16,746 nucleotides of DNA from IMG/VR virus record IMGVR_UViG_2740892439_000018. One strand, written 5' to 3'. A model generated the notes under the pieces. That model did not search any database. It was not told the DNA's origin and saw nothing but the letters and a program-made list of their open reading frames with translations. Every line of letters starts with the position of its first letter. Position 1 is the stretch's first letter. The position numbers and the translations under genes are program-made. Of this stretch, positions 329 through 15,839 are shown piece by piece. This DNA comes from a virus. Taxonomy: Duplodnaviria > Heunggongvirae > Uroviricota > Caudoviricetes.

Positions 329-625
329 ATGTTCGAACAACGCGTAAATTCTGACGTACTGACCGTTTCTACCGTTAACTCTCAGGATCAGGTAACCCAA
401 AAACCCCTGCGTGACTCGGTTAAACAGGCACTGAAGAACTATTTTGCTCAACTGAATGGTCAGGATGTGAATGACCTCTATGAGCTGGTACTGGCTGAAG
501 TAGAACAGCCCCTGTTGGACATGGTGATGCAATACACCCGTGGTAACCAGACCCGTGCTGCGCTGATGATGGGCATCAACCGTGGTACGCTGCGTAAAAA
601 ATTGAAAAAATACGGCATGAACTAA
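329..625 (+). CDS. fis: DNA-binding protein Fis (nucleoid-associated factor for inversion stimulation)
   Basis: 98-aa product [21 protein letters not shown]...[17 protein letters not shown] recognised as E. coli Fis with C-terminal HTH; ATG 329, TAA 623-625. Confidence 0.97.
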
Positions 626-688
626 TTCAGGTTAGCTAAATGCTTGATTAAAAAGGCGCTACTCGGCATGGGGAAGCGCCTTTTTTAT
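609..688. repeat. attL: left copy of perfect 80-bp direct repeat (fis 3' end plus terminator)
   Basis: 80/80 identity with 15760-15839, checked base by base; flanking bases differ at 608/15759 and 689/15840. Covers the last 17 nt of fis and the downstream hairpin. Confidence 0.88.
650..688 (+). terminator. fis rho-independent terminator (copy inside attL)
   Basis: Stem AGGCGCT (654-660) / AGCGCCT (675-681) followed by TTTTTT (681-686); A-tract upstream. Confidence 0.7.
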
Positions 689-1348: not shown

Positions 1349-1410
1349 GTGCAAATTTGCACTATGCCAGCCAACGCAATTTTGCGTTATCGGGAATATC
1401 AGCAAGTTAC
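1349..1410. repeat. Structured non-coding repeat unit B: 14-bp perfect palindrome GTGCAAATTTGCAC (1349-1362) followed by 44-bp conserved block (1367-1410)
   Basis: Same architecture as unit A about 300 bp away, in the same orientation. Confidence 0.55.
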
Positions 1411-1697
1411 CGCCGCAGTCGTTCCGGCTTCTTCCACTGGTAAGTATTTTTCGCGCTCTCCCTCCGTTGTTGAGAACGGCGACGGTATGCCAGCAACTCA
1501 AGGACTCTGGTTCGTATGTTGCGCATATCCACGCCGTTAAGCTCAATACCGTCACGGCGCATCACCTCAGCCACCACACGCGCGTAATTTTCGGCTATCA
1601 CGCTGTCCGGCTGTGTAGCCTGTTCGTCAGGCTGCTGACTGATTCCGGTAATGCGGCGAATTATTTTTAGTAGATCAGTTTCAGTCATTCTCGTCAT
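1407..1697 (-). CDS. Hypothetical protein, translationally coupled to terL (ATGA overlap)
   Basis: 96-aa ORF whose ATG (1697-1695) overlaps the terL stop TGA (1696-1694); N-terminal two-thirds protein-like, basic C-terminus looks odd. No recognised family. Confidence 0.35.
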   Translation of the reverse strand: MTRMTETDLLKIIRRITGISQQPDEQATQPDSVIAENYARVVAEVMRRDGIELNGVDMRNIRTRVLELLAYRRRSQQRRESAKNTYQWKKPERLRR

Positions 1698-3355
1698 ACC
1701 CCATCAAACGCCGCAAGTCGCTCTTTGTGGCTGTCGCTCATATCAAATGCAAATTCCTCATGCTCTGCCTGGAATGTGCCAAACGCCATCAGCGCCGCAA
1801 CGCTCGGGTCTATCTTGTTGGATGATTTTTTCTTGTTCGGCTTGATATTGGCGTTCGCGTCACTCTGCATCACAACATTACTCATTGACCAGGCCAGCAC
1901 CGGATCACCACGATGCACAATCACCTTCCGGTTAACAAAAACTTCGAACGATTTCGCCGCCGGACTGAAACGAAGGTATGTTTGCGGGAACGGCTCCACC
2001 TCAAATCCTGCCCCCTGTAGCTGCGTCCTCAGGTGCGTGGCGTTCCATGTATCGAAGCCCACCAGCCTGATATTGAAATTCTCTGCATCCGCCATGATGT
2101 CATCACGGATACGGTCATAATCAATGCAGTCACCCGGTGTTGTGCGTATCCAGCCCGCCTTTACCCACTGGCGATAGATGGCGCGGTTTTTATTGGCGGG
2201 GTTCTGTAGCTGAAATTCCGGCAGATAGTGACGGGAAACCAGCATAATCTTTTTACCGACCGGAAAGGCATAGCACACGCTGGAAATATCGCTGGTTGAT
2301 GATAAGTCCAGCCCCGCGTAGCACTCCTGCCCGTATAAATCCGCCTCCGCGAACGTTCCGGCGCACTCCGCCCATGCACCGTTACCCATCCACGGCGTAG
2401 CCCCCTGACACCAGATATTGAATCGCTTGGTGAGCATTTCCACCCACTGCGACGGAATACCCCGCGCTTTCTGGATGGTTGAGGCCAGTTTTTCACGATC
2501 GACGGAAACATCGATATTTGGATTCGCCTTTATCCACATCGCCGGATCGTCAACCTCGCTTTCATCATCCAGCTCGTAAATCAGAACGAACATGGATTCG
2601 TTCATCTCTTCACCATCCAGTATCTGACAGCAATAGTCATAGTGTTGTTTACAGGCTGAAACAACGTTGCTCCCCGATGTGGTGATGGCAAATAACAGCC
2701 CCTCCGGACGCGCCCCCATCCCCAGCTCAAGTGCGGAATAAACCCCGTTGTCTGGGTGCAGGTGATATTCATCCACAATGGCAAGACTCGGGTTTGTCCC
2801 CTCAATGGTTGCCGCTTTTGCTGCCAGTGGCTTTAACAGGCTGTTGGTTTTCGGGTGTATCACCTTGTGCGCCTGAATATTTACCCGCTTTCGTAACGGT
2901 CGGGATAAAAGGCACATCTGACGCGCATCATCAAACACGATCCGCGCCTGATCACGACTCACGGCGGCGGTGTAAATATCCTGCTGCCCGTTTTCCATAA
3001 CCAGAAACCAGTTAGCCAGGATAGCGGCGACCGTGGATTTGGCATTTTTTCGCGGTACTTCAATGAATGCGCTGGTGTATTTGCGCCGTCCGGTGGCCTT
3101 AACCTTAAAGCCCAGGATGCAGGCAAAGGCGAACTGCTGCCACGGCTCCAGTTCAATGGGACTACCGCGCATTGCGCCTTTTACGTGCGGACACACCCGG
3201 GAAAAGGCAATAAACCGCTCCACGACCTCCGGATCGAACGTGTAAAGGGAGTTTTCAAGGTCAGAAAAATACCGTTTAACGGCCTGTTTCAGTCGTTTAC
3301 AGGCCGTAATTTTGCCGTTTTTTACGCCTTCTGCGTACTCATGCCAGGCGGTCAA
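1694..3355 (-). CDS. terL: Terminase large subunit (TerL)
   Basis: 553-aa product with a terminase-type N-terminal ATPase region and C-terminal nuclease region; follows terS with 17-nt overlap. Start appears to be TTG at 3355 preceded by GAGGAAGAGG Shine-Dalgarno. Confidence 0.92.
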   Translation of the reverse strand: MTAWHEYAEGVKNGKITACKRLKQAVKRYFSDLENSLYTFDPEVVERFIAFSRVCPHVKGAMRGSPIELEPWQQFAFACILGFKVKATGRRKYTSAFIEVPRKNAKSTVAAILANWFLVMENGQQDIYTAAVSRDQARIVFDDARQMCLLSRPLRKRVNIQAHKVIHPKTNSLLKPLAAKAATIEGTNPSLAIVDEYHLHPDNGVYSALELGMGARPEGLLFAITTSGSNVVSACKQHYDYCCQILDGEEMNESMFVLIYELDDESEVDDPAMWIKANPNIDVSVDREKLASTIQKARGIPSQWVEMLTKRFNIWCQGATPWMGNGAWAECAGTFAEADLYGQECYAGLDLSSTSDISSVCYAFPVGKKIMLVSRHYLPEFQLQNPANKNRAIYRQWVKAGWIRTTPGDCIDYDRIRDDIMADAENFNIRLVGFDTWNATHLRTQLQGAGFEVEPFPQTYLRFSPAAKSFEVFVNRKVIVHRGDPVLAWSMSNVVMQSDANANIKPNKKKSSNKIDPSVAALMAFGTFQAEHEEFAFDMSDSHKERLAAFDGV

Positions 3356-3695
3356 GTTCGTCCTCTTCCTCTGTTTCCGGTGGATTTCTGCGACGGCTTA
3401 CCGGGTCAAAACCCAGCAAAGAAGCCATTTTGATCATTATTCTTTCTGCGTCAGCCTTTGCGCTCAGTGCGGGGTTTCTGCTCTCGCTGCCCTGACTGTT
3501 AACAATGCTGAACCCGCGCGTCGCAAGGTCTTCGACGGCTTTGCGGTATATGGAGTAGTTAACACAATACAGTTCCAGATTGCTCCAGTCGGCGGGGGTA
3601 AGGTCTTCCCGCCCGGAAAGCTGGCGCGATTTTTCCTTCCACTGCCTGACCGCGATTTCATCCAGGTAAGCGGGGGCTTTTGGTGGTCTTGCCAT
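3339..3695 (-). CDS. terS: Terminase small subunit (P27-like TerS)
   Basis: MARPPKAPAYLDEIAVRQWKE... resembles P27-family small terminase; immediately upstream of terL. ORF-track start at 3740 is a TTG; first ATG is at 3695. Confidence 0.82.
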   Translation of the reverse strand: MARPPKAPAYLDEIAVRQWKEKSRQLSGREDLTPADWSNLELYCVNYSIYRKAVEDLATRGFSIVNSQGSESRNPALSAKADAERIMIKMASLLGFDPVSRRRNPPETEEEDELDRLA

Positions 3696-3746
3696 GTTCT
3701 TTTTTCGCCCAATTATTTTCAAAAAAATTACCGTGCACAAAAATTT

Positions 3747-3805
3747 GAGGGGGCGGTCGGTGTCCGGCAGGGACGGTTTCGTCCTGAAAACCCCCCCCCC
3801 CCCCC
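3747..3805. other. GC-rich block plus C15 homopolymer between HNH and terS; candidate cos/packaging site
   Basis: GAGGGGGCGGTCGGTGTCCGGCAGGGACGGTTTCGTCCTG (3747-3786) then 15 consecutive C (3791-3805); sits where HNH-dependent cos phages place cos, upstream of terS. Confidence 0.4.
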
Positions 3806-3983
3806 TCTGACGGCCTCACCAGCGATTGCGAAAACATTCCATGACCTCGCGGTCACGGTCGGTTAATCGCTTCGCTGTGGTGCGTTTTGTGCGCCCTGTC
3901 CTGTTGGCTTTGTGCTCTGTCTCCTGTGTCTTCCATGTGTCACGCTGCCTTATCAGTCCACGTATCAGCTGGTTTGCTCCTGT

Positions 3984-4424
3984 TCAGTCATCATCGCCAT
4001 ACATCCAGTCGTTACGGTGTGCCGCCCGTTCTTCCTGCTCGCGATACATGCCCGCTTTACGGTTTGCTTTCGTGGCTGGATCTTCCCGTGTCGTCTTACG
4101 GTTGTGGCACGTCTGGCACAATGCCTGGTGATTCCACTCAGGCCAGAAGAGAACATCACCGCCGCCATTGATGGGAATGATGTGATCCACCACAAGAGCT
4201 GGCGTATAAATCCCCTTAGCCAGACAACGCACGCATAACGGGTTTTTGCTCAGGTACAGGGCGCGGTATTTGTCCCACTGTCGGGAATACCCGCGCGCGC
4301 GGCGGTGTCCCCGTCTGGCATCCTCTGCACGCCATGCAGCCCGCCTGTGCTCTTCACACTTGCCGGACTTCACGCGCTTATTACAGCCAGGCTCAGTGCA
4401 TCGCCTTAATGGTTGCCACGGCAT
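3984..4424 (-). CDS. HNH endonuclease (phage packaging-associated)
   Basis: 146-aa product with Cys-rich N-terminus (CTEPGC...C..C) and HNH core ...LVVDHIIPINGGGD...NHQALCQTCHNRKT; AGGGGTG Shine-Dalgarno; overlaps connector stop (TGATG). Confidence 0.9.
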   Translation of the reverse strand: MPWQPLRRCTEPGCNKRVKSGKCEEHRRAAWRAEDARRGHRRARGYSRQWDKYRALYLSKNPLCVRCLAKGIYTPALVVDHIIPINGGGDVLFWPEWNHQALCQTCHNRKTTREDPATKANRKAGMYREQEERAAHRNDWMYGDDD

Positions 4425-4726
4425 CAGTACACCCCTACGTCACGATAAACTGACCAGAGCGCAGAAATAGCCATAGGCAGTTCCGAGTGCTCCACTGGTG
4501 AAACCGCTTCCCGGTTCTCGTACAGGAAAGCGATGTACATCAGGCAACCAACACGCATTGCCGGGGTAAATTCCAGCCCGTCTTCAAAACGTTTCCCGAT
4601 ATGCTTCTGGCAGGCTTCCAGCGCCGCATCGGTATACATTTTCAGAAGTTCGCCTTCACCGGATAAATCATCATCAAGTCGAAGATGTGCCCTGACTTCA
4701 TCAGGTGTAATTCTGGCTTCACTCAT
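4424..4726 (-). CDS. Head-tail connector / DNA-packaging protein (gp6-like)
   Basis: MSEARITPDEVRAHLRLDDD... resembles the N-terminus of gp6-type head-tail connector proteins; GGGAGA Shine-Dalgarno before ATG 4726; 8-nt overlap with portal stop. Confidence 0.65.
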   Translation of the reverse strand: MSEARITPDEVRAHLRLDDDLSGEGELLKMYTDAALEACQKHIGKRFEDGLEFTPAMRVGCLMYIAFLYENREAVSPVEHSELPMAISALWSVYRDVGVY

Positions 4727-5933
4727 CTTTTCTCCCTTTAATTTCCACAGTCTGTTTCCATGCCTGGCTGAACTCATCACCACCTTCACGCGGCGGCATA
4801 CCCTCACGCTCACGGGCTTCGTTCGGATTCATGATCCCGTTCTTAATCCCTTTCTCATACGTGGCATAACGTTCGGTGGGTGTGGCGCGTAATAAATCGG
4901 CTGAATCAAACTCAACCAGATAACGGGTACCAGGTACGGGAGAAGCCACCAGCAAAGCGGCCTTGATTTGCTGTTCGAAGTTCGCCAGCCACGGGCGCAT
5001 TGTCATGGTCAGAAACGCGCGGCTTGCCTCGCTGAAATTGCTGTAGGTGCTGTTGCTGTATTCCTGCAGAAAAATAGGCGATACGTTGAACATGCGGGCG
5101 ATGTCTTCAATGGAGAAGCGACGGGAGGCCAGCCATTCCGCATCCTGGTTACTCATTCCCAGTTGCCTGTAATCCATGCCCCCTTCAAGGATTGGCGTTT
5201 TTCCGGCATTTTTCGCCCCCTTGTAGCGTTCCAGAGCATCCAATGCCTGTTTACCTTTCACGCCGTCCAGCCATTCGCCTGACGTGATAATCCCTGCCGC
5301 CATCATGCCATCTTTCATAATGCTGGCTCCGTGGCGCTGTTGAGCAAGGCCAAGCCCAAGTGCCTCACGGCAAATCGTGACGGGGGAGCGCCCCAGAAAG
5401 CCATCATCCGAGGCATAGCGGAGATGCAGAACTTCTTCCTGTAAATACGTGCGCACCGTTCCTGTATAGGGTTCGGTGATGGTATAGCGGTATTTGTGTG
5501 CGCCTGTGCGTTCCGGTACAACACACCCCGGCGCATAAGGATGAAGTGATTTTGGCTGCCCGTCCTGCCCCCACTCAATAACCGCATAGGCGTTACCGTT
5601 CAGCAGGCAGTGACGCATCATTGTGCGTTTAAACTGGTAAGGTGTCTGGCACGAATTAGGCTGCTCATTCAGCAGAATATCTACCGGGTGACTGTCCAGC
5701 CATTCCCGCGCCTCCCTGCCCTTGTCATTACGTACCAGATACAGATAACACGGCATCGTGGCCACCGCCTCAGCGATGACAGAAACCGCATTCATCACTG
5801 CAGGCAATGATTCAGCCGTCCCGGCAGAAACATATTCTCCGGATCCGGTATTCGGTACGCCGGACAGCGCCAGAAAATCATCAATGGACAGGTTACGCTG
5901 CTCGCTTTTTTTACGACTAAAAGGCCACCACAT
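4719..5933 (-). CDS. Portal protein (HK97 family)
   Basis: Portal-like blocks (LPAVMNAVSVIAEAVATMPCYLY, NEQPN, LLNGNAY, IARMFNVSPIFL, RPWLANFEQ); first ATG at 5933, 1 nt after protease stop. ORF-track start 6023 is TTG. Confidence 0.92.
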   Translation of the reverse strand: MWWPFSRKKSEQRNLSIDDFLALSGVPNTGSGEYVSAGTAESLPAVMNAVSVIAEAVATMPCYLYLVRNDKGREAREWLDSHPVDILLNEQPNSCQTPYQFKRTMMRHCLLNGNAYAVIEWGQDGQPKSLHPYAPGCVVPERTGAHKYRYTITEPYTGTVRTYLQEEVLHLRYASDDGFLGRSPVTICREALGLGLAQQRHGASIMKDGMMAAGIITSGEWLDGVKGKQALDALERYKGAKNAGKTPILEGGMDYRQLGMSNQDAEWLASRRFSIEDIARMFNVSPIFLQEYSNSTYSNFSEASRAFLTMTMRPWLANFEQQIKAALLVASPVPGTRYLVEFDSADLLRATPTERYATYEKGIKNGIMNPNEAREREGMPPREGGDEFSQAWKQTVEIKGRKDE

Positions 5934-5934
5934 A

Positions 5935-6495
5935 TCACAACCCCGCCAGCTCAGACCAGCGATGACGATTATTTCCTGTCGGGCATAATTCAGGGTGCTG
6001 TGCAAACAACGAACGGTGGGCAATCTCCACGCCAGATTCTGGATAAGCAGGCATCGACGTTATTGTGATTTCACGGAGTTCAGCGGCGGTTACGGTACGC
6101 AAATACGGTTTTTGCGCGATACTCCACTCCTCGCATAATGCGCGAAAACCAAAGCTCATTCCTGTAATGTCGCCACGCTCCACCAGCGTAAGCACATCTT
6201 TTCCAAGCTGGGTATCCGGCGGTGTCAGTTCAAAACGTAACCCGGTGTTATCCTCAGTCAGTACCAGAGTGCCGGATTTGGTGCGCCCCAGCAGTTGGGT
6301 ATAGTCATGCTCATACAGGCAGCGCACATCATTACCCGCCGCCAGATAGTCAGCAAAAGCCCCCGGCGTGAACTGTTCGCGGAATTCGTCCCAGATAATT
6401 TCTGAAAGGCTGTTCCAGCGAACGGCATACCCCACCAGCTTTTTATTGCTGGCGGTCAGTTCAGATGTGCGGATTTCAAAATCGGTGTTTTTCAT
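5935..6495 (-). CDS. Prohead maturation protease (HK97 family, S78/U35)
   Basis: 186-aa product with GYAVRWN...FTPGAF...EHD...LGRT...EDNTGLRFE...GMSFGF pattern typical of HK97 prohead proteases; GGAG Shine-Dalgarno 7 nt before ATG 6495. Confidence 0.9.
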   Translation of the reverse strand: MKNTDFEIRTSELTASNKKLVGYAVRWNSLSEIIWDEFREQFTPGAFADYLAAGNDVRCLYEHDYTQLLGRTKSGTLVLTEDNTGLRFELTPPDTQLGKDVLTLVERGDITGMSFGFRALCEEWSIAQKPYLRTVTAAELREITITSMPAYPESGVEIAHRSLFAQHPELCPTGNNRHRWSELAGL

Positions 6496-6515
6496 CGGTG
6501 TACTCCATAAAGCTG

Positions 6516-6537
6516 AAAAAGGAGGCCGCAGCCTCCT
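6516..6537 (-). terminator. Intra-operon hairpin / partial terminator between capsid and protease genes
   Basis: Stem AGGAGGC (6520-6526) / GCCTCCT (6531-6537), 4-nt loop; on the minus-strand transcript it is followed by UUUU (plus-strand AAAA 6516-6519). Confidence 0.5.
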
Positions 6538-6549
6538 CCTTACTCATGA

Positions 6550-7717
6550 CTAGCCAGCTTTCATTTCCAGAATTTTGATGGCGTTTGAATCCACCACACC
6601 ACCGCCCAGATATTTATCCGTGTGGACCTTGTAGAATCCGGGTTCAGTAATGTTGTCCGGTCGGGTGCGAATCCCTGTTACATGATCAACGATGAAATAA
6701 CCACGACTGAAATCGCCAACCGCTAGCGGTGCTTTTCCTGCGCCGATGTCCGGCATGGACTCCAGGCAGTAAACAGGACGACCAAGCAACATATCCGGCG
6801 CACCTTCTTTAAGGCTGTCGCGCCAGATATAATCGCCGTTCTCATTTTTCAGCTTCTGTAGTGTCCCTGCCGTGCCCGAGTTCATCACCCAGACGGCATT
6901 TTTGCGGTATTTCGCTTTCAGCTTGTAGAGAATGTCGATCAGTTCGTCCGCTGTAATGGCGGTTCCACTTGCCGCTACCATTTTTTCAATGGTGCCAAAA
7001 GCGCGGGTTTTGTCACTGGTCGCCGCACGGGTGTAAGCATGAAGCCTTTCGGCTTGCCGTTACCGTTGCCATTAACAAAATCATCCTCTTCGGTGCTGGC
7101 GAACGTGTCGGCAATTTCGGAGGATAACCAGCCAGAATATCCACCTCTGAAAAATCTAGGATTTCCTGCGTGGTTTTCGGGTAGGCGTAGATCGGGTTCA
7201 GCTTGATGGTTACGCGTTCAATTTTCGGGGTGTTGGTTTCACTGCGTGCGCTGCCTTCTGTGCCTCGTCCTACAGTTGCGCCGCCAGTGGAAACCAGTTT
7301 CTGAAACTCATTTGATTTTGCAGTCTTCACGGTCGCGATCACGCGCATAACACTGTCATCCTGTAGCTGGCGCATGACTTCGCGATCAAGCTCAGGAATT
7401 ACGGTATATCCGCCATCCCTGCCGCTGTCAGTGCTGGTGGACAGAGATCGCACATCTCCGGTTACGATGTAGTTACGCAATTCATCAGATGATACTTTCT
7501 GGATGCCCGTTCCTGGCTTGCTGCGTTCTTCATCAGCCACAGACTCGAGGCGGGAAATGTCTGTATCGAGGGAATCAGCTTTTGCACGCAGTTCATCAAA
7601 CTGTTTGCCCTCGTCATCGTTCAGGCTGCGGTTTTCACTGTCGGCTTTTTCCAGCAGGGATCGCATCTGGTTTTTCAGGGCGTTTTTTTGCTGGCGGAGC
7701 TCGATTAATTTCTTCAT
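6550..7717 (-). pseudogene. Major capsid protein (HK97 family), disrupted by two single-base frameshifts
   Basis: N-terminal frame 7717-7013 (coiled-coil delta-like region then TIKLNPIYAYPKTTQEILDFSEVDILAGY); a third frame across about 7125-7035 reads SSEIADTFASTEEDDFVNGNGNGKPKGF; C-terminal frame 6981-6550 reads AYTRAATSDKTRAFGTIEKMVAASG...MKAG. Hand translation puts the shifts near 7119-7126 and 7036-7043. Confidence 0.85.
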
Positions 7718-7964
7718 GAAGGTTTTCTCGTATTGGTTAAGATTCAGGACGTGAAACCAACACGGAGGGAGCGCCGCCCGACACTCTCGGCATCTCGCAG
7801 ATCAACCCGGCATCGCGCAGGGGATCGGACGGCAACAGTGGCGGCTCACGTCTGAGTGCCACTATTTAAGATATGGATCAAAAAATTGATGTAAATAAGG
7901 TATTTTTGTTACGAACAGTCTTGAATGTTAACACACAAATAATTTACAAAAATGCTGATAAACT

Positions 7965-8741
7965 ATGGAGATTCAAGTGACAAAAGAAATTCTTGCTGTT
8001 CCTGGGATGCGACCATCCCCATTGTTCAAAAGGACTTATAAATTAGTTCGGGAGATTGACGAAAGATTAACCAAACTGATTCATAGATGGCGATTTTTCA
8101 ATGCAGGCCCCCCCATGAAAGTTACTGCATATGATGGAACAGAAATATGCTATCAAGGTTTGGCATTTAAAGGTACTCCCGTTCAAATTTTTTGGAATGG
8201 TTTTATCGATCCTTACATTGAAAATAACTCAGAAATTGTTTTAGAGCAGACCTCCGCGTTAGCAATTGAATGTCAATTCTCAATAGAGGAGTCAATCGAG
8301 GAGGCTAAATTACTATTACTTGTGATGATTCGCAGGCTTTACTATGAAATGGCCGAAACAGATAAAATATTAAGAGGTGATGGGTTTTCCTTCCCAGAAA
8401 AAAAAGACGTTAGTGGTTATATTGAAAGTATCTCTCAAAAAATCATAGAACATGCTGAAATTGAAAAGCTAAAAAAAACGCATCCAAAACAAAACATATT
8501 CAACATAGCTACTGTAAATAGCCAATACGTACAACTTGGTACAAATAACAATATTAATATACAAGAGCTCTCTGAGTTCTTCTCAAAAATTGCATCAACT
8601 GGTGAAAAAGAAATTATTACTCTCTCAAAAAACCTTCTTAAGAAGGCCTACTCAAAAAACTTACTGAGTAAAGAAAACTATGAAGCTCTAATATCAAACC
8701 TTAACACACAGACAAAATACACTTTCAAATCTACTAGTTAA
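7965..8741 (+). CDS. Hypothetical protein (258 aa), AT-rich accessory gene, unrecognised family
   Basis: Long ORF on the strand opposite to every other island gene, visibly AT-rich; possible alternative GTG start at 7977 preceded by GGAG. C-terminal module NIFNIATVNSQYVQLGTNNNINIQEL...KNLLKK shared with the next gene. Confidence 0.75.
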   Translation: MEIQVTKEILAVPGMRPSPLFKRTYKLVREIDERLTKLIHRWRFFNAGPPMKVTAYDGTEICYQGLAFKGTPVQIFWNGFIDPYIENNSEIVLEQTSALAIECQFSIEESIEEAKLLLLVMIRRLYYEMAETDKILRGDGFSFPEKKDVSGYIESISQKIIEHAEIEKLKKTHPKQNIFNIATVNSQYVQLGTNNNINIQELSEFFSKIASTGEKEIITLSKNLLKKAYSKNLLSKENYEALISNLNTQTKYTFKSTS

Positions 8742-8770
8742 ACGCAAAAGCGATCACGAGGAGCAACATA

Positions 8771-9280
8771 ATGGATCTTAACGTCATGGCATATCCAGAA
8801 AAATTCACAATCGCAGGAGTTGAATACAAGGGGAAAAGAAACTCAGCTGAAAAAAAAGTGCTAATCCCTTATACTGAAGAACCAGATATTAATATTGGAG
8901 ATGAAATCACTCAAAAACTAGGGAAGGGGGAAATAATATTAAAAGTAATTGATATGTCATTTTTACCAGGAGGTACACTCAATGTTGGTACTAATCACCC
9001 TCACATGCTTACATTAAAAGTCGAGAATCTGACTGCTAATGAACATAAACCAAAACAATCTAGCCAAAATACATTTAACATTGGTAACATATCCGGTACA
9101 CAGGTTCAACTCGGTGAGCATAACAATCTTATTGTAAATCTCAGCATAACTGAACTTGTTGAAAAAGTTTCTCAATCACAAGATCCTCAGGCAAAAAATT
9201 TGCTTAAGGATTTACTAAATAATAGTACGGTAGCCAGTCTCGTTGGTGCTGGTGCGTCCGCCTTGTTAACAATGCTTTGA
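8771..9280 (+). CDS. Hypothetical protein (169 aa), AT-rich accessory gene with hydrophobic C-terminal tail
   Basis: Strong GAGGAG Shine-Dalgarno 7 nt before ATG 8771, 29 nt after the previous stop; motif NTFNIGNISGTQVQLGEHNNLIVNLS...KNLLKD parallels the upstream protein; ends ...STVASLVGAGASALLTML. Confidence 0.8.
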   Translation: MDLNVMAYPEKFTIAGVEYKGKRNSAEKKVLIPYTEEPDINIGDEITQKLGKGEIILKVIDMSFLPGGTLNVGTNHPHMLTLKVENLTANEHKPKQSSQNTFNIGNISGTQVQLGEHNNLIVNLSITELVEKVSQSQDPQAKNLLKDLLNNSTVASLVGAGASALLTML

Positions 9281-9281
9281 G

Positions 9282-9312
9282 TATATGGCCTGGCAAAGAG
9301 CCAGGCCATATA
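9282..9312. terminator. Bidirectional hairpin terminator between convergent genes
   Basis: Perfect 13-bp stem TATATGGCCTGGC (9282-9294) / GCCAGGCCATATA (9300-9312), 5-nt loop; AT-rich flanks; between the stop at 9280 (+) and the stop at 9315 (-). Confidence 0.7.
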
Positions 9313-9723: not shown

Positions 9724-9946
9724 CTGTTCACCTTTTGATATTTTATCTTTTAATTCATAAGGTTAAGGGGTGAACAGTTTCACAAAAACTATTCACCAAC
9801 TGTTCACCACTGTTCACCCTTGAAGCTCAATAAACAATCAAAAAGGTGAACAGTGAATAGTTTGGTGAACAGTTCATAAATAACTGTTCACCCTATAATA
9901 TACTGATATAAAAGATATTTATGACAGGGTGAACAGTGGTGAACAG
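9724..9946. repeat. Iteron array (9 copies of GGTGAACAG / CTGTTCACC in both orientations); putative island replication origin
   Basis: Forward copies at 9769, 9845, 9864, 9928, 9938; reverse copies at 9724, 9800, 9810, 9884; embedded in AT-rich DNA immediately 3' of the primase-helicase stop (9960-9962). Confidence 0.72.
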
Positions 9947-9959
9947 TTATTCCATAAGT

Positions 9960-11777
9960 TTAATTTTTGCTATCGTCATTAGTGACCGATACACATGATG
10001 GCATCCAGTCTTCTGATTCCTCCGTCAGTGTCACGTTTGAACGCAAACCGTGCTTCGTTTTCCGTTTCATATACTCCCTGCCATATTCCGCCATTGCCCC
10101 CGGCATATCTTTACCGAAGCGCGTCAGTGTTACAGGTTTACCAAACCCATGTGCCCTCATATAAGCCAGATAGGCATGATAGAGATATCTGCGCGGGCTG
10201 AATGGCACAATTTCAGCATTACCCACTAACAGGCCATCACACATTACCGACGCCATGAGATAGCCGCAGAAGTCCACCAGCGAATCCCCCTCTCGCTTTA
10301 TCGCCAGTGCTTCTTCAGATTTCTGCTGCTCATATAACAGGCGTCTGGCTTCGTCCTGGTTAGCAAACCGTGTAAGCAGATGGCGAATCACTACCGCCAG
10401 CTCACCTTCTATTTTTTCCGCCAGCATCGGATCACGTTCGTTCTCCGGTACAACTTCCGAAAAATTGAATATCACCCGACGACGTGAGATCCCCCCGCTG
10501 CGGTCACTGAATGACATGGCGTTATTGTTAACCGCCAGCACTACTGCCGGAATACGCGTTGAGTAGGGAGCTTTGTGTTTCGGGTCAATTGCCACCTTGT
10601 CACCGCCTGTAATGGCCTTAATCCCTGCCCCATCACCAGCGTAGCGGGTCATATCCGGCATGATAATCAGAGAAAAGCCAACCACTAACGCACGTTCCCT
10701 TGCATCTTCCAGCGCCTTCATGCTTGCTGATACTGTATTAGCCTTACCCGCCAGCATGGTGCAAATCTCCGCCATTACGCTTTTACCGCTTCCACCAGGA
10801 CCAGTTACCTCAATGAATAACTGCCAGTCATATCTGTTCGCCAGCACCATGAATAATGCCGCCAGTACACGATCCGCTTTGCGATCATTCTCAGCCACCG
10901 AACGGTGCAACCACTTCCAGAAATTCGGCGCATGTGTTGCCAGCGTTTCCCCCTCTGCTGGTGGGCTGAAAGGTAATTCACTGGCAATTAACAACCAGTC
11001 GTTTTTGTTATGCTCCCGAAAATTACCTGTTCTGGTATCAAATACCCCGTTACTGAATCCAATCAAGTTACGGGCTGTATTCCCCATTACAGGCAAACTT
11101 AACTTCATGGTATCGACCGCTGATTTAATAGCGTTCTGTGAATAGCTGATCTCCGCATCAATGAAAATCTGCGCCATAGCACGCTGTAACTCTTTATCCT
11201 GAACCGGCTCCCATATAACGCCGTTGTAATGGTGAACAGTGTCAGAGTCAGCATGAATCGCCAGTTCACCACCATAATGTGCCAGGAGAACTTCGCCGCG
11301 TTGACTTGCTCCCATCTGGTTAAGCGCCAGTGATGAAGCGTTATCGTCTTTTACCCGCTCTTTTTTCTTTACAGGCAGTTCAACAACCTTTTTCTTTTCC
11401 GCCAGCTCTCCCCGCTCACGCTCCAGATATTCGCGCCAGTTCTCCCGTTTCTGGCTGTGCATTCCTTCAGGGTAATAATCAGCATCCCTGACACCTGCCG
11501 CTGCCAGTTTCTGCCCGATGGTATTAACAAGTCCCGGACGCAATAACCCCGCCTGATAGAGACGCACACGATAGCGTCCGTCTGGTACGATTTGCAGGTT
11601 GTCCAGTTCGGCAAGTTGTTGCTCTCCAAGCCAGACAGGTGGCACGTTATCGCCAGCCAGTCGCCCGTCCTGTTCCTGCCACTGCTTCGCATGTGCCCAC
11701 GCATCACTACCCGCAAAAATGATGACTTCCGTCATTTTGTCACGCGGTTGGTGTTTTAAATTTGGCGCTTTTTTCAT
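9960..11777 (-). CDS. Replication initiator: P4-alpha/D5-like primase-helicase (Pri-Rep) with Walker A GPGGSGKS
   Basis: 605-aa product from ATG 11777 (GGAGAGAG Shine-Dalgarno; ATGA overlap with upstream gene); central P-loop NTPase (VTGPGGSGKS...DxxxD) resembles D5_N/SF3-helicase replication proteins of P4-like elements; ori iterons abut its 3' end. Confidence 0.88.
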   Translation of the reverse strand: MKKAPNLKHQPRDKMTEVIIFAGSDAWAHAKQWQEQDGRLAGDNVPPVWLGEQQLAELDNLQIVPDGRYRVRLYQAGLLRPGLVNTIGQKLAAAGVRDADYYPEGMHSQKRENWREYLERERGELAEKKKVVELPVKKKERVKDDNASSLALNQMGASQRGEVLLAHYGGELAIHADSDTVHHYNGVIWEPVQDKELQRAMAQIFIDAEISYSQNAIKSAVDTMKLSLPVMGNTARNLIGFSNGVFDTRTGNFREHNKNDWLLIASELPFSPPAEGETLATHAPNFWKWLHRSVAENDRKADRVLAALFMVLANRYDWQLFIEVTGPGGSGKSVMAEICTMLAGKANTVSASMKALEDARERALVVGFSLIIMPDMTRYAGDGAGIKAITGGDKVAIDPKHKAPYSTRIPAVVLAVNNNAMSFSDRSGGISRRRVIFNFSEVVPENERDPMLAEKIEGELAVVIRHLLTRFANQDEARRLLYEQQKSEEALAIKREGDSLVDFCGYLMASVMCDGLLVGNAEIVPFSPRRYLYHAYLAYMRAHGFGKPVTLTRFGKDMPGAMAEYGREYMKRKTKHGLRSNVTLTEESEDWMPSCVSVTNDDSKN

Positions 11778-12073
11778 TTCTGCTCTCTCCACGCGGCAAT
11801 CATGTTTTTCAGTTCCTGTAGTTTTTTATCCACATCCACACGTGACACATGGTTATTTCTGGAAGGCGGGATTTCCCGCCGGAATCTGCAAATAAAGATC
11901 TCCACGTTCAGCGAGCTATGAAATGAATAGCCATCACGAATAAAGTACACACGGTCAAACATTATCGATTTTACTGTTACTCTGTTGCCGTTCTTATCCC
12001 GATAAATAGCGCCGGGGATAATTTTGGGATGTGCATAACCGCTGGCAGTCAAGCCAGATAAATACGTTCTCAT
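11774..12073 (-). CDS. Hypothetical protein (99 aa), coupled to pri-rep
   Basis: ORF whose stop overlaps the pri-rep ATG (ATGA); unrecognised family. Confidence 0.55.
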   Translation of the reverse strand: MRTYLSGLTASGYAHPKIIPGAIYRDKNGNRVTVKSIMFDRVYFIRDGYSFHSSLNVEIFICRFRREIPPSRNNHVSRVDVDKKLQELKNMIAAWREQK

Positions 12074-13315: not shown

Positions 13316-13537
13316 TTACGCCGATTTCAGTTGTGCTTTGGGTTGACGATCAAGCCAATCATTAACCTCAGACAGCAACCAACCGACAGAACGAGCCCCC
13401 AACTGACGACGGGCTGGAAACACCCCTTTCCTTTCCATCATATAACGCGTCGTTCGGCAAATACCGGTAAGGCGTCGGCATTCCTCCTCACGAATGATGC
13501 GATCAAATTGGTCTTGCGATGATTTAACTTTGCTCAT
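13316..13537 (-). CDS. alpA: AlpA-family transcriptional regulator / excisionase-like HTH protein
   Basis: 73-aa product from ATG 13537: ...QFDRIIREEECRRLTGICRTTRYMMERKGVFPARRQLGARSVGWLLSEVNDWL matches the AlpA/prophage CP4-57 regulator pattern. ORF-track upstream extension not supported. Confidence 0.85.
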   Translation of the reverse strand: MSKVKSSQDQFDRIIREEECRRLTGICRTTRYMMERKGVFPARRQLGARSVGWLLSEVNDWLDRQPKAQLKSA

Positions 13538-13599
13538 ATGGATATGCCCTCGTTTATTATCGTTCGAGAGCATATTGATAATATGCTTAGAATATTTAG

Positions 13600-13630
13600 G
13601 TGATATCACATATTTTATATGTGATATCAC
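13600..13630. promoter_or_regulatory. Two copies of the 10-bp palindrome GTGATATCAC spaced 21 bp centre to centre, upstream of alpA; candidate operator
   Basis: Palindromes at 13600-13609 and 13621-13630 with AT-rich spacer ATATTTTATAT; the second overlaps the stop codon of the upstream 245-aa gene. Confidence 0.5.
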
Positions 13631-14364
13631 GTTCGCCCTAAGTATTTAGCCCACGTATTCTTATCTGTTGCGGGAAGAAACACCCCTTTCATCGCTGCCG
13701 CAGCCTCTAAAACAGCGATCACTTTAGCAACTGGAGCAGTTCCAATATCTATATCATCCATTTCTGGAATTAGTTTGATTAATGCAGGGATCAACTCAGC
13801 TTTCTTCGCAAGAGTTTTTGGCGATTCTCCCATTTTTCTTCCAGGCATGGTTCCAACATCTTTGATATGCTCCAAATCCTTAGCCATTACACATAAAAAC
13901 CTTCTGTCGATCTCAATAGCCCCATCACTCATAATTTGACATTCCCAGTTTTCTGATTCAGGACGAGTTGAAAAAAAAGATGATACTATCCTTGCATCAT
14001 TGCCAATAAATTCAAGTTCAGAAAAACTTTCCCGATTTAGATAGAAGAAACCGCAAAAATTCTTTGCAAGATAAGAAGCCACACCAAAATAATTTACCCA
14101 TTCAAAATCGCTACCAACAGGCTTCATCCCTGTAATTACCCAGCGATCCCCTTGCAACATCCCTCCAGAATCAACATCAATATTTTCAACTAATGATTTT
14201 GGTATAACTAGCGATTTACATGGATGACAGTTTGGAAAATAAACAGAAATATTCAAAGCACCTATAGCAGCAAAATGATATATATCATTAAGCGTACATC
14301 CCAGCTTCTTTGCTGCTTCAGGCAATGGATAATATATACGCTCAGGGATGCTTATCTTTTTCAT
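13627..14364 (-). CDS. Hypothetical protein (245 aa), AT-rich, translationally coupled to int; possible N-terminal HTH
   Basis: ATG (14364-14362) overlaps the int stop TGA (14363-14361); visibly lower GC than int; N-terminal LPEAAKKLGCTLNDIYHFAAIGAL resembles an excisionase/AlpA-type HTH; remainder unrecognised. Confidence 0.78.
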   Translation of the reverse strand: MKKISIPERIYYPLPEAAKKLGCTLNDIYHFAAIGALNISVYFPNCHPCKSLVIPKSLVENIDVDSGGMLQGDRWVITGMKPVGSDFEWVNYFGVASYLAKNFCGFFYLNRESFSELEFIGNDARIVSSFFSTRPESENWECQIMSDGAIEIDRRFLCVMAKDLEHIKDVGTMPGRKMGESPKTLAKKAELIPALIKLIPEMDDIDIGTAPVAKVIAVLEAAAAMKGVFLPATDKNTWAKYLGRT

Positions 14365-15584
14365 TTCGCTACCTTCAATATTTTTACATTTGAATACTGA
14401 CCAGAAATAACCTCAAGCCGTTCCATCCATTTATTTAGAGCGTCTAGTTTTTCTGGTAAGTACTGGCTACGATTGTATATGGCCATTACACCACCTAATG
14501 TGTGACCGAGAAGCTGTTCAACAACATGTGGTGCAATCCCCATGTTATTTAGTGTGGTAGCAAACGTCCTGCGCAGGTCGTGAAGTGTCCACGATTCAAT
14601 ATGCCCCAGACGCTTATATATCATCCTCCCCCATTGGCTGACAGCTTCTGGTTTCTTTATTTCACCCAACAAAAGACCTGAGTTTTTGTGTTGCTCTATA
14701 AGCTGTTGGATGAATGGGCGTATTACCACTGGAATAGGGCGCAATATCTTCTCTCCGCCTTTGCTGTGTTCTTTAGGCACTGTCCAGATCCAATCCTTTA
14801 AATCCCACTCTGTAATACGTGACAACCGAAGCTCCTGGGTTCGACATCCAAACACCACCAATAGACGCAACAACGATGAATAGTATGGTTTAAATTTCTT
14901 ACCTGAACATTCCTGCCAAATATCTGCTAACTCTTGACTGCTGTGTTCCCTATCGCGCTTATTCTGTTTTCTACCAACATCATCGATAGTCAGGTCATCC
15001 AGAGCATTGCTAACCGCATAACGATGTACGCGGCAAAACTTCAGAGCCTGCTTACACATCTGCAGCAAATAACCAGCTGCCACTGGAGCGTCATTCCTTA
15101 CTCTAGCGAAACACTCCAGCCAATGCCGGGTTTCGCACATTGATAACGGATAATCACCTATATAGGGGAAAATATGCTTCCTCAGTTGCTCAATGTGTTT
15201 ATCAACATTCGTGCGCTTGTAAACGGCGTATTCTCTGATCCAGTAATCCAGAGCCTCTTTTACCGTCACTGGTTTGAGTGTTTCATGTATTGCCACATTT
15301 AACCGATGCTTTGGATTTTTACCTTCAGCAAGCCATGCTCGACACTGTTCACGTTTCTCGCGCGCAGCTTTCAGAGAAAGATCCGGGTAGTTTCCAAGCT
15401 TAACACGCTGTGAATACGATTCACGCCCACCAATCCGGAAAGAGAAATACCAAGTAAGAACGCCAATTTTTGACACCTTGATACTCAATCCATCACCGTC
15501 AGCATAAAATCTATCTCTATCGATTTCCCTCCCCAGCATCTTACGCAACGATGTATCGCTTAATTTGTTCGTTCCTCCAGCCAT
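14361..15584 (-). CDS. int: Tyrosine site-specific integrase (P4-type)
   Basis: 407-aa product from ATG 15584 (AAGG Shine-Dalgarno); N-terminal MAGGTNKLSD... and C-terminal catalytic region ...WTLHDLRRTFATTL...VEQLLGHTLGGVMAIYNRSQY typical of P4-family integrases. ORF-track start 15665 is TTG. Confidence 0.93.
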   Translation of the reverse strand: MAGGTNKLSDTSLRKMLGREIDRDRFYADGDGLSIKVSKIGVLTWYFSFRIGGRESYSQRVKLGNYPDLSLKAAREKREQCRAWLAEGKNPKHRLNVAIHETLKPVTVKEALDYWIREYAVYKRTNVDKHIEQLRKHIFPYIGDYPLSMCETRHWLECFARVRNDAPVAAGYLLQMCKQALKFCRVHRYAVSNALDDLTIDDVGRKQNKRDREHSSQELADIWQECSGKKFKPYYSSLLRLLVVFGCRTQELRLSRITEWDLKDWIWTVPKEHSKGGEKILRPIPVVIRPFIQQLIEQHKNSGLLLGEIKKPEAVSQWGRMIYKRLGHIESWTLHDLRRTFATTLNNMGIAPHVVEQLLGHTLGGVMAIYNRSQYLPEKLDALNKWMERLEVISGQYSNVKILKVAK

Positions 15585-15759: not shown

Positions 15760-15839
15760 AATACGGCATGAACTAATTCAGGTTAGCTAAATGCTTGATT
15801 AAAAAGGCGCTACTCGGCATGGGGAAGCGCCTTTTTTAT
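15760..15839. repeat. attR: right copy of perfect 80-bp direct repeat
   Basis: Identical to 609-688; contains a second copy of the fis 3' end and terminator hairpin (about 15801-15839) just upstream of yhdJ. Confidence 0.88.

Follow-up and report, generated by a model that had tools for sequence, protein, structure and literature searches.

Origin of the capsid-first head gene order in a probable capsid-forming PICI at the fis locus of Escherichia coli

In HK97-type phages the head genes follow one another as portal, protease and capsid. In the DNA analyzed here (the window: 16,746 nucleotides of IMG/VR record IMGVR_UViG_2740892439_000018), the same three genes are reversed in relative order while keeping a common orientation. 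This raises the questions of whether the order is peculiar to this locus, how it arose, and whether it serves capsid dosage. The reading that we favor, with a probability of about 0.9, is that the segment represents the head-building half of the packaging operon in a capsid-forming PICI (cf-PICI), a 15.15-kb island at fis, and that its layout results from one ancient reordering.

Head genes and the surrounding island

The head and packaging genes all lie on the minus strand in the order major capsid, S78 prohead protease, portal, gp6-like connector, HNH endonuclease, TerS, and TerL (Table 1), and each family assignment is backed by Pfam and PHROG profiles. The capsid-protease-portal order of the preliminary description is thus confirmed with exact coordinates, and profile searches reassigned none of its products, including the portal (4719-5933) and the capsid (6550-7717). 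Adjacent genes of the module overlap or are 1 nt apart, except at the HNH-TerS spacer and at the junction behind the capsid gene, which holds a hairpin. HNH proteins are packaging cofactors of HK97-type terminases. The cos site would lie in the HNH-TerS spacer; in phiP27, cos is annotated between these two genes, and the LR881103.1 record begins at terS and ends past HNH and a 61-codon small ORF. This ORF (3815-4000) overlaps the HNH-proximal part of the spacer and is intact in E. coli MS6198 and frameshifted in the window. The small ORF that closes the operon is found in the O157:H7 and PE15 elements as well. The presumed operon promoter region contains two weak sigma-70-like matches (7931-7902 and 7895-7868), a number not above chance. 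The arrangement is no assembly accident, since at least 80% of the 6.7-kb module is found colinear in 157 complete E. coli genomes; the module of MS6198 is 99.9% identical to that of the window.

Table 1. Features of the island and of its packaging operon (positions in the window)
Feature	Position	Strand	Evidence or remark
attL, left repeat copy (3' end of fis and its terminator)	609-688	+	80-nt perfect direct repeat
Final small ORF of packaging operon	1407-1697	-	phrog_1561 (no function assigned); overlaps TerL stop
Large terminase TerL (ATPase and nuclease domains)	1694-3355	-	PF03354, PF20441; phrog_9, E 2e-180
Small terminase TerS, P27/Terminase_4 family	3339-3695	-	17-nt overlap with TerL start
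HNH-TerS spacer, candidate cos region	3696-3983	-	C13 tract at 3787-3800
HNH endonuclease	3984-4424	-	PF01844, phrog_144
gp6-like head-tail connector (Ad1)	4424-4726	-	PF05135, phrog_40; 8-nt overlap with portal stop
Portal protein	4719-5933	-	PF04860, E 1.5e-92
HK97-type prohead serine protease (Peptidase_S78)	5935-6495	-	PF04586, E 7e-46; own GGAG ribosome-binding site
Terminator-like hairpin directly past capsid stop	6516-6541	-	Core GGAGGC/UGCG/GCCUCC at 6521-6536, U5 at 6516-6520
Major capsid protein gene (HK97 fold, N-terminal delta domain)	6550-7717	-	PF05065; frameshifted in window copy
Non-coding region upstream of capsid gene	7718-7964	-	Presumed operon promoter region
Primase/helicase, island replication module	9960-11792	-	D5_N, DUF5906, Pox_D5
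AlpA-family regulator	13316-13630	-	PF05930, E 3e-14
Tyrosine integrase	14361-15584	-	Arm-DNA-bind_3, Phage_integrase
attR, right repeat copy	15760-15839	+	80-nt perfect direct repeat; spacing 15,151 bp

The discrete island delimited by the direct repeats measures 15,151 bp and is integrated in E. coli at the 3' end of fis. We compared it with the published definition of cf-PICIs (10.1101/2025.02.11.637232) and with the components used by SatelliteFinder (PMC10085698). The island falls within the expected range of about 10-18 kb and has an integrase at one end, an AlpA-type regulation module, its own primase-replicase module (with iterons at 9769-9957), a prohead protease and a portal, a gp6-like connector, and HNH, TerS and TerL, in the proteobacterial layout of capsid-protease-portal-connectors followed by hnh-terS-terL. 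Tail and holin or lysis genes gave no Pfam or PHROG match in any island ORF scanned. The component that is missing is the PF05521 head-completion or "adaptor" gene, reported as a determinant of tail choice, for which tblastn returned no match in the slot after the portal. The gap between portal and HNH is 298 nt in the window, versus a median of 655 nt in relatives with this gene. The gene is present in about 85% of relatives, and PF05521 was confirmed for its O157:H7 representative. SatelliteFinder accepts 10 of 11 components as Type B (PMC10085698). A temperate HK97-like phage would instead carry TerS-TerL-portal-protease-capsid-Ad1-Hc1 followed by a tail module, whereas here the order differs and tail genes are absent. 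Judged by its gene content, the island is a capsid-forming PICI and a typical representative of a known family.

Between the primase and the capsid gene lies a low-GC pair of accessory genes on the opposite strand. A PADLOC search of the accessory genes for defence systems found nothing, as did Rfam and tRNA scans of the window.

In the window the capsid gene is not a single ORF. Its family assignment holds, but two 1-nt deletions, after plus-strand positions 7037 and 7131, divide it into 7013-7717, which covers profile positions 1-94, and 6550-6981, which covers positions 143-279. The PF05065 signal spans the whole gene despite these deletions, and the 1263-nt aligned stretch is otherwise identical to the intact 389-aa gene of the MS6198 element. 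Among 107 E. coli genomes with the same capsid stretch, the capsid frameshifts are private to the window, and all frameshifts of the window, in the capsid gene and in the small ORF, sit in G/C runs. This pattern is compatible with sequencing error or with the very recent decay of a single copy, and the frameshifts could be homopolymer sequencing errors. Programmed frameshifting was rejected, since the breaks are two deletions, found in no other genome, in a gene that otherwise matches an intact one exactly. With two frameshifts in its capsid gene, the window copy as sequenced is probably unable to build heads.

One might therefore regard the locus as a decaying prophage, that is, the tail-less residue of a scrambled HK97-like prophage with no satellite function, given the two frameshifted genes and the absence of head-completion, tail and lysis genes. 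We consider this very improbable. The two att copies match perfectly; the genes for integrase, AlpA and primase are intact; the frameshifts are private; and the same compact architecture recurs with intact genes in many genera, in a family that experiments have shown to be one of satellites.

Gene order in relatives and its origin

Is the capsid-first order special to this locus? The preliminary description had named beforehand what would count against its reading, namely the same order being the norm in related satellites, and this is what the comparison revealed. The order is the stated conserved organization of proteobacterial cf-PICIs (bioRxiv 10.1101/2022.09.08.507074; 10.1101/2025.02.11.637232). 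In our survey it was found without exception in about 70 related loci and, among the 80 loci covered, in every one with enough sequence, as well as in the E. coli relatives. The surveyed loci come from Enterobacteriaceae, Erwiniaceae, Pectobacteriaceae, Yersiniaceae, Morganellaceae, Orbaceae and Pasteurellaceae, with capsids 59-76% identical to that of the window; the O157:H7 element at the phoQ-roxA site and the PE15 element at the fis site share the order too. Thus, the capsid-first order is the published invariant layout of these satellites.

Outside the family the order changes with distance. A sister group, whose capsids are 43-46% identical to that of the window, is capsid-first in all 12 cases. 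More distant capsid relatives from IMG/VR in which both genes are visible have the canonical portal-protease-capsid order (88 of 88), as do both head regions retrieved from true phages, ST64B and phiP27, where capsid identity does not exceed 37%. These comparisons bear out that the head genes are reversed in relative order with orientation kept, and also support the earlier argument that neither a single inversion nor a circular permutation could produce this arrangement. A word-index protein search for intermediates yielded the family itself (the best 120 matches are all at least 68% identical); the outgroups come from an exhaustive search of representatives, among which the capsid representative P0128 had no IMG/VR matches.

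The closest known systems are the proteobacterial cf-PICIs, with EcCIEDL933 as the prototype and EcCIGN02175 and KpCIDSM30104 as further examples. Like the window island, they are about 15 kb long, with integrase, AlpA and primase in the left part, the capsid-protease-portal-connector-HNH-TerS-TerL series on a single strand, neither tail nor lysis genes, and HK97-type proteins that stay below 40% identity to the proteins of any true phage. The O157:H7 element agrees in size and gene content with the description of EcCIEDL933, to which it is likened on these grounds; it is inserted at phoQ-roxA rather than at fis and shares about 74% nucleotide identity with the window from portal to capsid. 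The window also differs from these cf-PICIs in having no PF05521 gene between portal and connector, a frameshifted capsid gene, and the accessory pair. Firmicute cf-PICIs (the Bacillus/Clostridium/Staphylococcus and Lactococcus/Enterococcus groups) have the same gene content, their own small capsid and stolen tails; they represent independent origins with other orders, beginning with portal-protease-capsid or with HNH-TerS-TerL (10.1101/2022.09.08.507074). Three tail-less IMG/VR loci with portal-protease-capsid-HNH-TerS-TerL (L183, L184, L187) are comparable to them.

HK97/P27-type phages (HK97, phiP27, ST64B, SfI/SfII/SfIV) share with the window the Terminase_4 TerS, TerL, PF04860, S78 and PF05065 (with delta domain) families, the gp6-like Ad1, an HNH gene beside cos, and a GC-rich hairpin after the capsid gene. 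Their order is HNH-cos-TerS-TerL-portal-protease-capsid-Ad1-Hc1-tail, whereas in the window the head block precedes HNH, in the order capsid-protease-portal-(Hc1)-Ad1. They also possess tail, lysis and lysogeny-switch genes that the window does not have, and their capsids are T=7, in contrast to the published T=4 capsid of cf-PICIs (10.1101/2025.02.11.637232).

A natural explanation, which fits the sequence comparisons, is a single ancient reordering of an HK97/P27-type head module that was then inherited by the whole proteobacterial cf-PICI clade. Capsid, protease and portal have diverged congruently from the sister group (42-49% identity each), and 28-39% identity to the counterparts in P27/ST64B-type phages is seen for capsid, portal, TerL, TerS, Ad1 and HNH alike. 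The similar identities of six genes and the in-step divergence suggest that the module descended as a unit and was reordered once, long ago.

Another scenario is that the module was assembled gene by gene from different phages, its order reflecting a mosaic origin. Indeed, the best-scoring true phages vary by gene: ST64B/SfI-type for the capsid; Streptococcus Javan, Ralstonia and phi1026b phages for the portal; and Brucella BiPBO1, Marinobacter and Vibrio phages for TerL. In addition, the protease shares just 18-20% identity with its ST64B and phiP27 counterparts. However, all best phage matches are at 33-37% identity, a range where ranking is noisy, the protease belongs to the same S78 family, and the similarity of six genes to one phage type and the in-step divergence from the sister group point the other way. 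Nor was anything assembled within this island, given the near-identical MS6198 module and the clade-wide order. We therefore judge a mosaic origin improbable. Nor do the best matches point to a single donor phage: they differ by gene and all lie at this low identity. Of the earlier suggestion of a "rearranged or independently assembled" module, the first half is retained, as an ancient and clade-wide event, and the second is disfavored by the congruent divergence of the genes.

The hairpin after the capsid gene

The hairpin directly past the capsid stop folds at -21.4 kcal/mol (z = -2.35 versus shuffled sequences); a generic terminator scan of the window did not flag it. To measure its conservation, hairpins were counted sequence by sequence, with other gene ends and random windows as controls. 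Of 74 distinct family sequences, 67 have a hairpin no more than 55 nt from the capsid stop, versus 7% of random windows, and in 41 of the 74 a U-run follows, versus 0.8%. At other junctions of the module this combination is absent, apart from one or two TerL ends. When 70 post-capsid sequences were aligned with MAFFT, RNAalifold predicted only 4 pairs without informative covariation, owing to loops of variable length and a nearly invariant GGGGC/GCCCC core.

The placement of the capsid gene first, with this hairpin behind it, had been proposed to be a dosage adaptation. In this scenario, a leaky terminator would set a high ratio of capsid to portal, protease and terminase without phage late-gene regulation, and selection would explain the invariance of the order. 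The near-exclusive association of the hairpin with the capsid junction, the tight packing of the remaining genes outside the HNH-TerS spacer, and the presence of the AAGGGGC...GCCCCUUUUUU element in part of the sister group are in favor of it. On the other hand, relatives with canonical order have a GC-rich hairpin behind the capsid gene just as often (72 of 84), and so does ST64B, which suggests that it travels with the capsid gene and predates the new order. It is absent, leaving a spacer of 10-24 nt, from most sister-group elements and from five members of the family. Moreover, the canonical order varies just as little within its own clade, so invariance alone is no proof of selection on order. 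Dosage control through the hairpin is thus possible but weakened, and as the adaptive cause of the capsid-first order we consider it unlikely.

Working of the island and its significance

Mutations have proved that the EcCIEDL933 module builds the small capsids (10.1101/2022.09.08.507074), and helper induction, self-made small capsids and hijacked tails have been shown for EcCIEDL933 and a few others (10.1101/2025.02.11.637232). By homology with EcCIEDL933, a helper phage would induce the island, leading to its excision and replication. The capsid protein, the S78 protease and the portal would then form small T=4 procapsids; HNH-TerS-TerL would cut at cos and package island DNA only; the connector would close the portal; and tails of the helper phage would join the filled heads. 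The hairpin most likely ends or stabilizes a short capsid transcript, so that the capsid protein (about 235 copies per head) may be made in excess over read-through products such as the portal (12 copies).

In summary, the window appears to hold a satellite that makes its own capsids and borrows phage tails, and the gene order is a reliable signature of its family. For annotation, capsid-protease-portal on one strand beside HNH-TerS-TerL, without tail genes, indicates a satellite rather than a prophage remnant; several GenBank "phage" records of 15-16 kb are actually such satellites. The IMG/VR elements L088-L100 (capsid representative P0124) also have capsid-protease-portal on one strand, each 42-49% identical to those of the window, together with an integrase, their own replication genes and, in some, the same post-capsid terminator. 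Unlike the window, they have no connector genes between portal and HNH/TerS, mostly no TerL within the contig, and different replication genes (DnaC-like or primase-polymerase). A still more tentative suggestion is that capsid-first order with a conserved terminator is a dosage device of a wider, partly described superfamily of capsid-encoding satellites that includes these elements. If true, the reordering would be an early, and possibly enabling, step in the evolution of head-making satellites.

Island content and the split capsid gene

The window is E. coli chromosome, with the 3' end of dusB, fis (329-625), the island, and chromosome resuming before yhdJ (from 15856). The 15,151-bp insert is bounded by an 80-nt perfect direct repeat (609-688 and 15760-15839) that duplicates the end of fis at the island borders. 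Nearly all island genes lie on the minus strand, in the architecture of a capsid-forming phage-inducible chromosomal island (cf-PICI); tail, lysis and defence models gave no matches among the island ORFs scanned. Profile searches agree with all coordinates, family guesses and the gene order of the preliminary description, and the observation stands well above chance.

Minus-strand genes of the island assigned by profile searches
Product	Coordinates	Pfam profile
Tyrosine integrase	14361-15584	
AlpA regulator	13316-13630	
D5-type primase/helicase	9960-11792	
Major capsid protein	6550-7717	PF05065
S78 prohead protease	5935-6495	
Portal	4719-5933	PF04860
gp6-like head-tail connector (Ad1)	4424-4726	
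HNH endonuclease	3984-4424	
Terminase_4 small terminase (TerS)	3339-3695	
Large terminase (TerL)	1694-3355	
Small ORF, function unassigned	1407-1697	

The capsid gene belongs to the proposed family; it is not the single reading frame initially described. Compared with the E. coli MS6198 genome, where the gene is intact and encodes 389 aa, the window lacks one base after plus-strand position 7037 and another after 7131, whereas the capsid stretches are otherwise identical over 1263 aligned nt. Both deletions (7037/7038 and 7131/7132) fall in short G/C runs and are absent from all 107 complete E. coli genomes carrying the window's capsid stretch. Four single-base indels in all, each in a G/C run, set the window apart from the otherwise near-identical MS6198 island. 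The other two (3968 and 3787-3800) lie in the HNH-TerS spacer, where one indel breaks a 61-codon ORF that is intact in MS6198; the poly-C tract at 3787-3800, in the candidate cos region, is lengthened to C13 in the window. The deletions reflect either sequencing errors at homopolymers or a very recent decay confined to this one copy.

Between primase and capsid, the run of minus-strand island genes is broken by two plus-strand genes (7965-8741 and 8771-9280; approximately 35% GC). They match phrog_5789 (function unknown), have no matches in Pfam or PADLOC, and are followed by a strong bidirectional terminator with a 13-bp stem (9282-9312; whole region 7965-9312). This low-GC opposite-strand pair, with unassigned functions, distinguishes the island from the prototype cf-PICI, EcCIEDL933; the variable slot that it occupies is said to hold immunity genes in cf-PICIs. 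Immediately downstream of the primase gene, GGTGAACAGT-type iterons recur five to six times (9769-9957) and are probably the island's replication origin. From attL to the final ORF of the operon, a stretch of approximately 720 nt (689-1406) contains no convincing ORF, tRNA or Rfam family; it carries an imperfect direct repeat of 44 nt (1063-1106 and 1367-1410) and likewise has no annotation in the MS6198 record.

Head-gene order in satellites and phages

The capsid-protease-portal order is unusual when set against HK97-type phages. The order is TerS, TerL, portal, protease, capsid, Ad1, Hc1 (the PF05521 head-completion gene) in ST64B and HNH, cos, TerS, TerL, portal, protease, capsid, Ad1 in phiP27. 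The island shares the HNH-(cos)-TerS-TerL arrangement with these phages, but its head block lies upstream of HNH and reads capsid, protease, portal. The neck genes are also reversed: in relatives with both, the profile-confirmed head-completion gene precedes the connector. As originally argued, a single inversion or circular permutation cannot yield the island order.

For an island of its kind, the order is not unusual and has already been described as the hallmark of proteobacterial cf-PICIs. One study gives it as their conserved organisation and adds that the modules of phages and PICIs "have different genetic organisations" (bioRxiv 10.1101/2022.09.08.507074), the search criteria of a later cf-PICI study list the module in the island's order (10.1101/2025.02.11.637232), and SatelliteFinder describes the organisation as very conserved (PMC10085698). 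We observed the same order in an O157:H7 element between phoQ and roxA, whose size and gene content match the EcCIEDL933 type, and in the PE15 element at fis; the 6.7-kb module is colinear in 157 complete E. coli genomes. Outside E. coli, 80 loci from Enterobacteriaceae, Erwiniaceae, Pectobacteriaceae, Yersiniaceae, Morganellaceae, Orbaceae and Pasteurellaceae (capsid identity to the window 59-76%) carry capsid, protease, portal, (Hc1), Ad1, HNH, TerS, TerL on one strand, without exception among loci with enough sequence. The order is thus the norm in related satellites, the outcome that the preliminary description had named as refuting, and a local rearrangement or independent building of the module in this island is not supported.

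The simplest reading of these comparisons is that a single old reordering of an HK97/P27-type module occurred in the ancestor of the satellite clade and has been inherited since, rather than any assembly in this island. For the window's capsid, portal, TerL, TerS, Ad1 and HNH, identity to the ST64B/phiP27 counterparts is 28-39%; the protease is more diverged, yet of the S78 family in both. The best-matching phages differ from gene to gene, but all matches are at 33-37% identity, and therefore provide no strong argument for a mosaic origin.

A capsid search of the phage collection yielded no matches between 37% and 60% identity, and none of the four matches at 60% or above is an ordinary phage genome: two 15-16 kb records filed as phages are cf-PICIs, one is a 3.8-kb fragment, and the last is a 106-kb record of a Klebsiella phage with a cf-PICI module close to one end. 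The record PQ569648.1 "Klebsiella phage P12620-1" (106.5 kb), with an entire cf-PICI packaging module at 90.9-105.3 kb, may be a chimeric assembly. Both LR881103.1 "Escherichia phage vB_KppS-Ant" (L084; 16.5 kb), in which a 2.3-kb ORF directly behind TerL is annotated as tape measure, and OR544139.1 "Pasteurella phage Pmp8" (L087; 15.3 kb) were deposited as phages but are cf-PICIs.

In an exhaustive search of cluster representatives, the nearest capsid outgroup is P0124 (45% identity), followed by many at 37-44%. The P0124 group (13 IMG/VR contigs, L088-L100) is capsid-first in all 12 contigs with a visible portal, and in capsid, protease and portal alike it shares 42-49% identity with the window. 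These small integrative elements have their own replication genes (DnaC-like or primase-polymerase) and HNH and/or TerS directly after the portal gene, without connector genes there and mostly without TerL on the contig, as in the capsid-protease-portal-(HNH)-TerS modules of L096 (5960-9789) and L097 (6974-10392). The next two capsid groups (111 contigs) show the canonical portal-protease-capsid order in 88 of 88 cases where both genes were seen. Tail-less IMG/VR modules in L183, L184 and L187 have the circularly permuted canonical order portal-protease-capsid-HNH-TerS-TerL, resembling the published Firmicute cf-PICIs.

The hairpin following the capsid gene

Directly after the capsid stop (6516-6541, minus strand), GGAGGC-UGCG-GCCUCC is followed by U5, with a folding energy of -21.4 kcal/mol (z = -2.35). 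Among distinct family sequences, 67 of 74 have a GC-rich hairpin at most 55 nt from the capsid stop, 41 of the 74 with a U-run. Other module gene ends have such hairpins in 0-9 of 43-66 cases, with no U-run except at 1-2 TerL ends; random windows of family loci have them in 7%, and with a U-run in 0.8%. Loops vary freely and a few stems carry compensating changes; on these counts and comparisons, the hairpin is real and conserved. Besides the HNH-TerS spacer, the capsid-protease gap is the only sizeable one in the module; the remaining junctions overlap or span 1 nt.

ST64B also has a hairpin 3' of its capsid gene, and canonical-order relatives have one in 72 of 84 cases, compared with 30% for the background of those GC-richer contigs. 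The hairpin is missing in five family members and in most of the sister P0124 group. Its presence thus does not depend on the capsid-first order; it travelled with the capsid gene. Some L088-L100 elements share the AAGGGGC...GCCCCTTTTTT hairpin behind the capsid gene.

The cf-PICI capsid has T=4 symmetry (10.1101/2025.02.11.637232). A first-placed capsid gene followed by the hairpin could give a putative short, stable, monocistronic capsid message, which would be a sensible route to approximately 235 capsid subunits for every 12 of the portal. A terminator is not mentioned in either of the cf-PICI descriptions (bioRxiv 10.1101/2022.09.08.507074; 10.1101/2025.02.11.637232).

A lineage without the adaptor gene

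Unlike the prototype cf-PICI, the window lineage has no PF05521 head-completion gene, the "adaptor" of the cf-PICI papers, between portal and connector (junction 4719-4726). This gene occupies that position in approximately 85% of relatives, and the portal-to-HNH gap is 298 nt in the window versus 655 nt as the median of relatives with the gene. It has likewise been lost in Leclercia, Pantoea, Erwinia, Serratia, Gilliamella and Xenorhabdus (loci L004, L013, L016, L018, L025 and L059). The SatelliteFinder class of the element would be the 10-of-11-component one (PMC10085698). Since adaptor and connector reportedly set tail specificity (10.1101/2025.02.11.637232), the adaptor-less variant may use tails differently.

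The gene order itself is already known. Small additions are the conserved terminator following the capsid gene, the reach of the capsid-first order into a group of small elements that is more distantly related, and the lineage without the adaptor gene.
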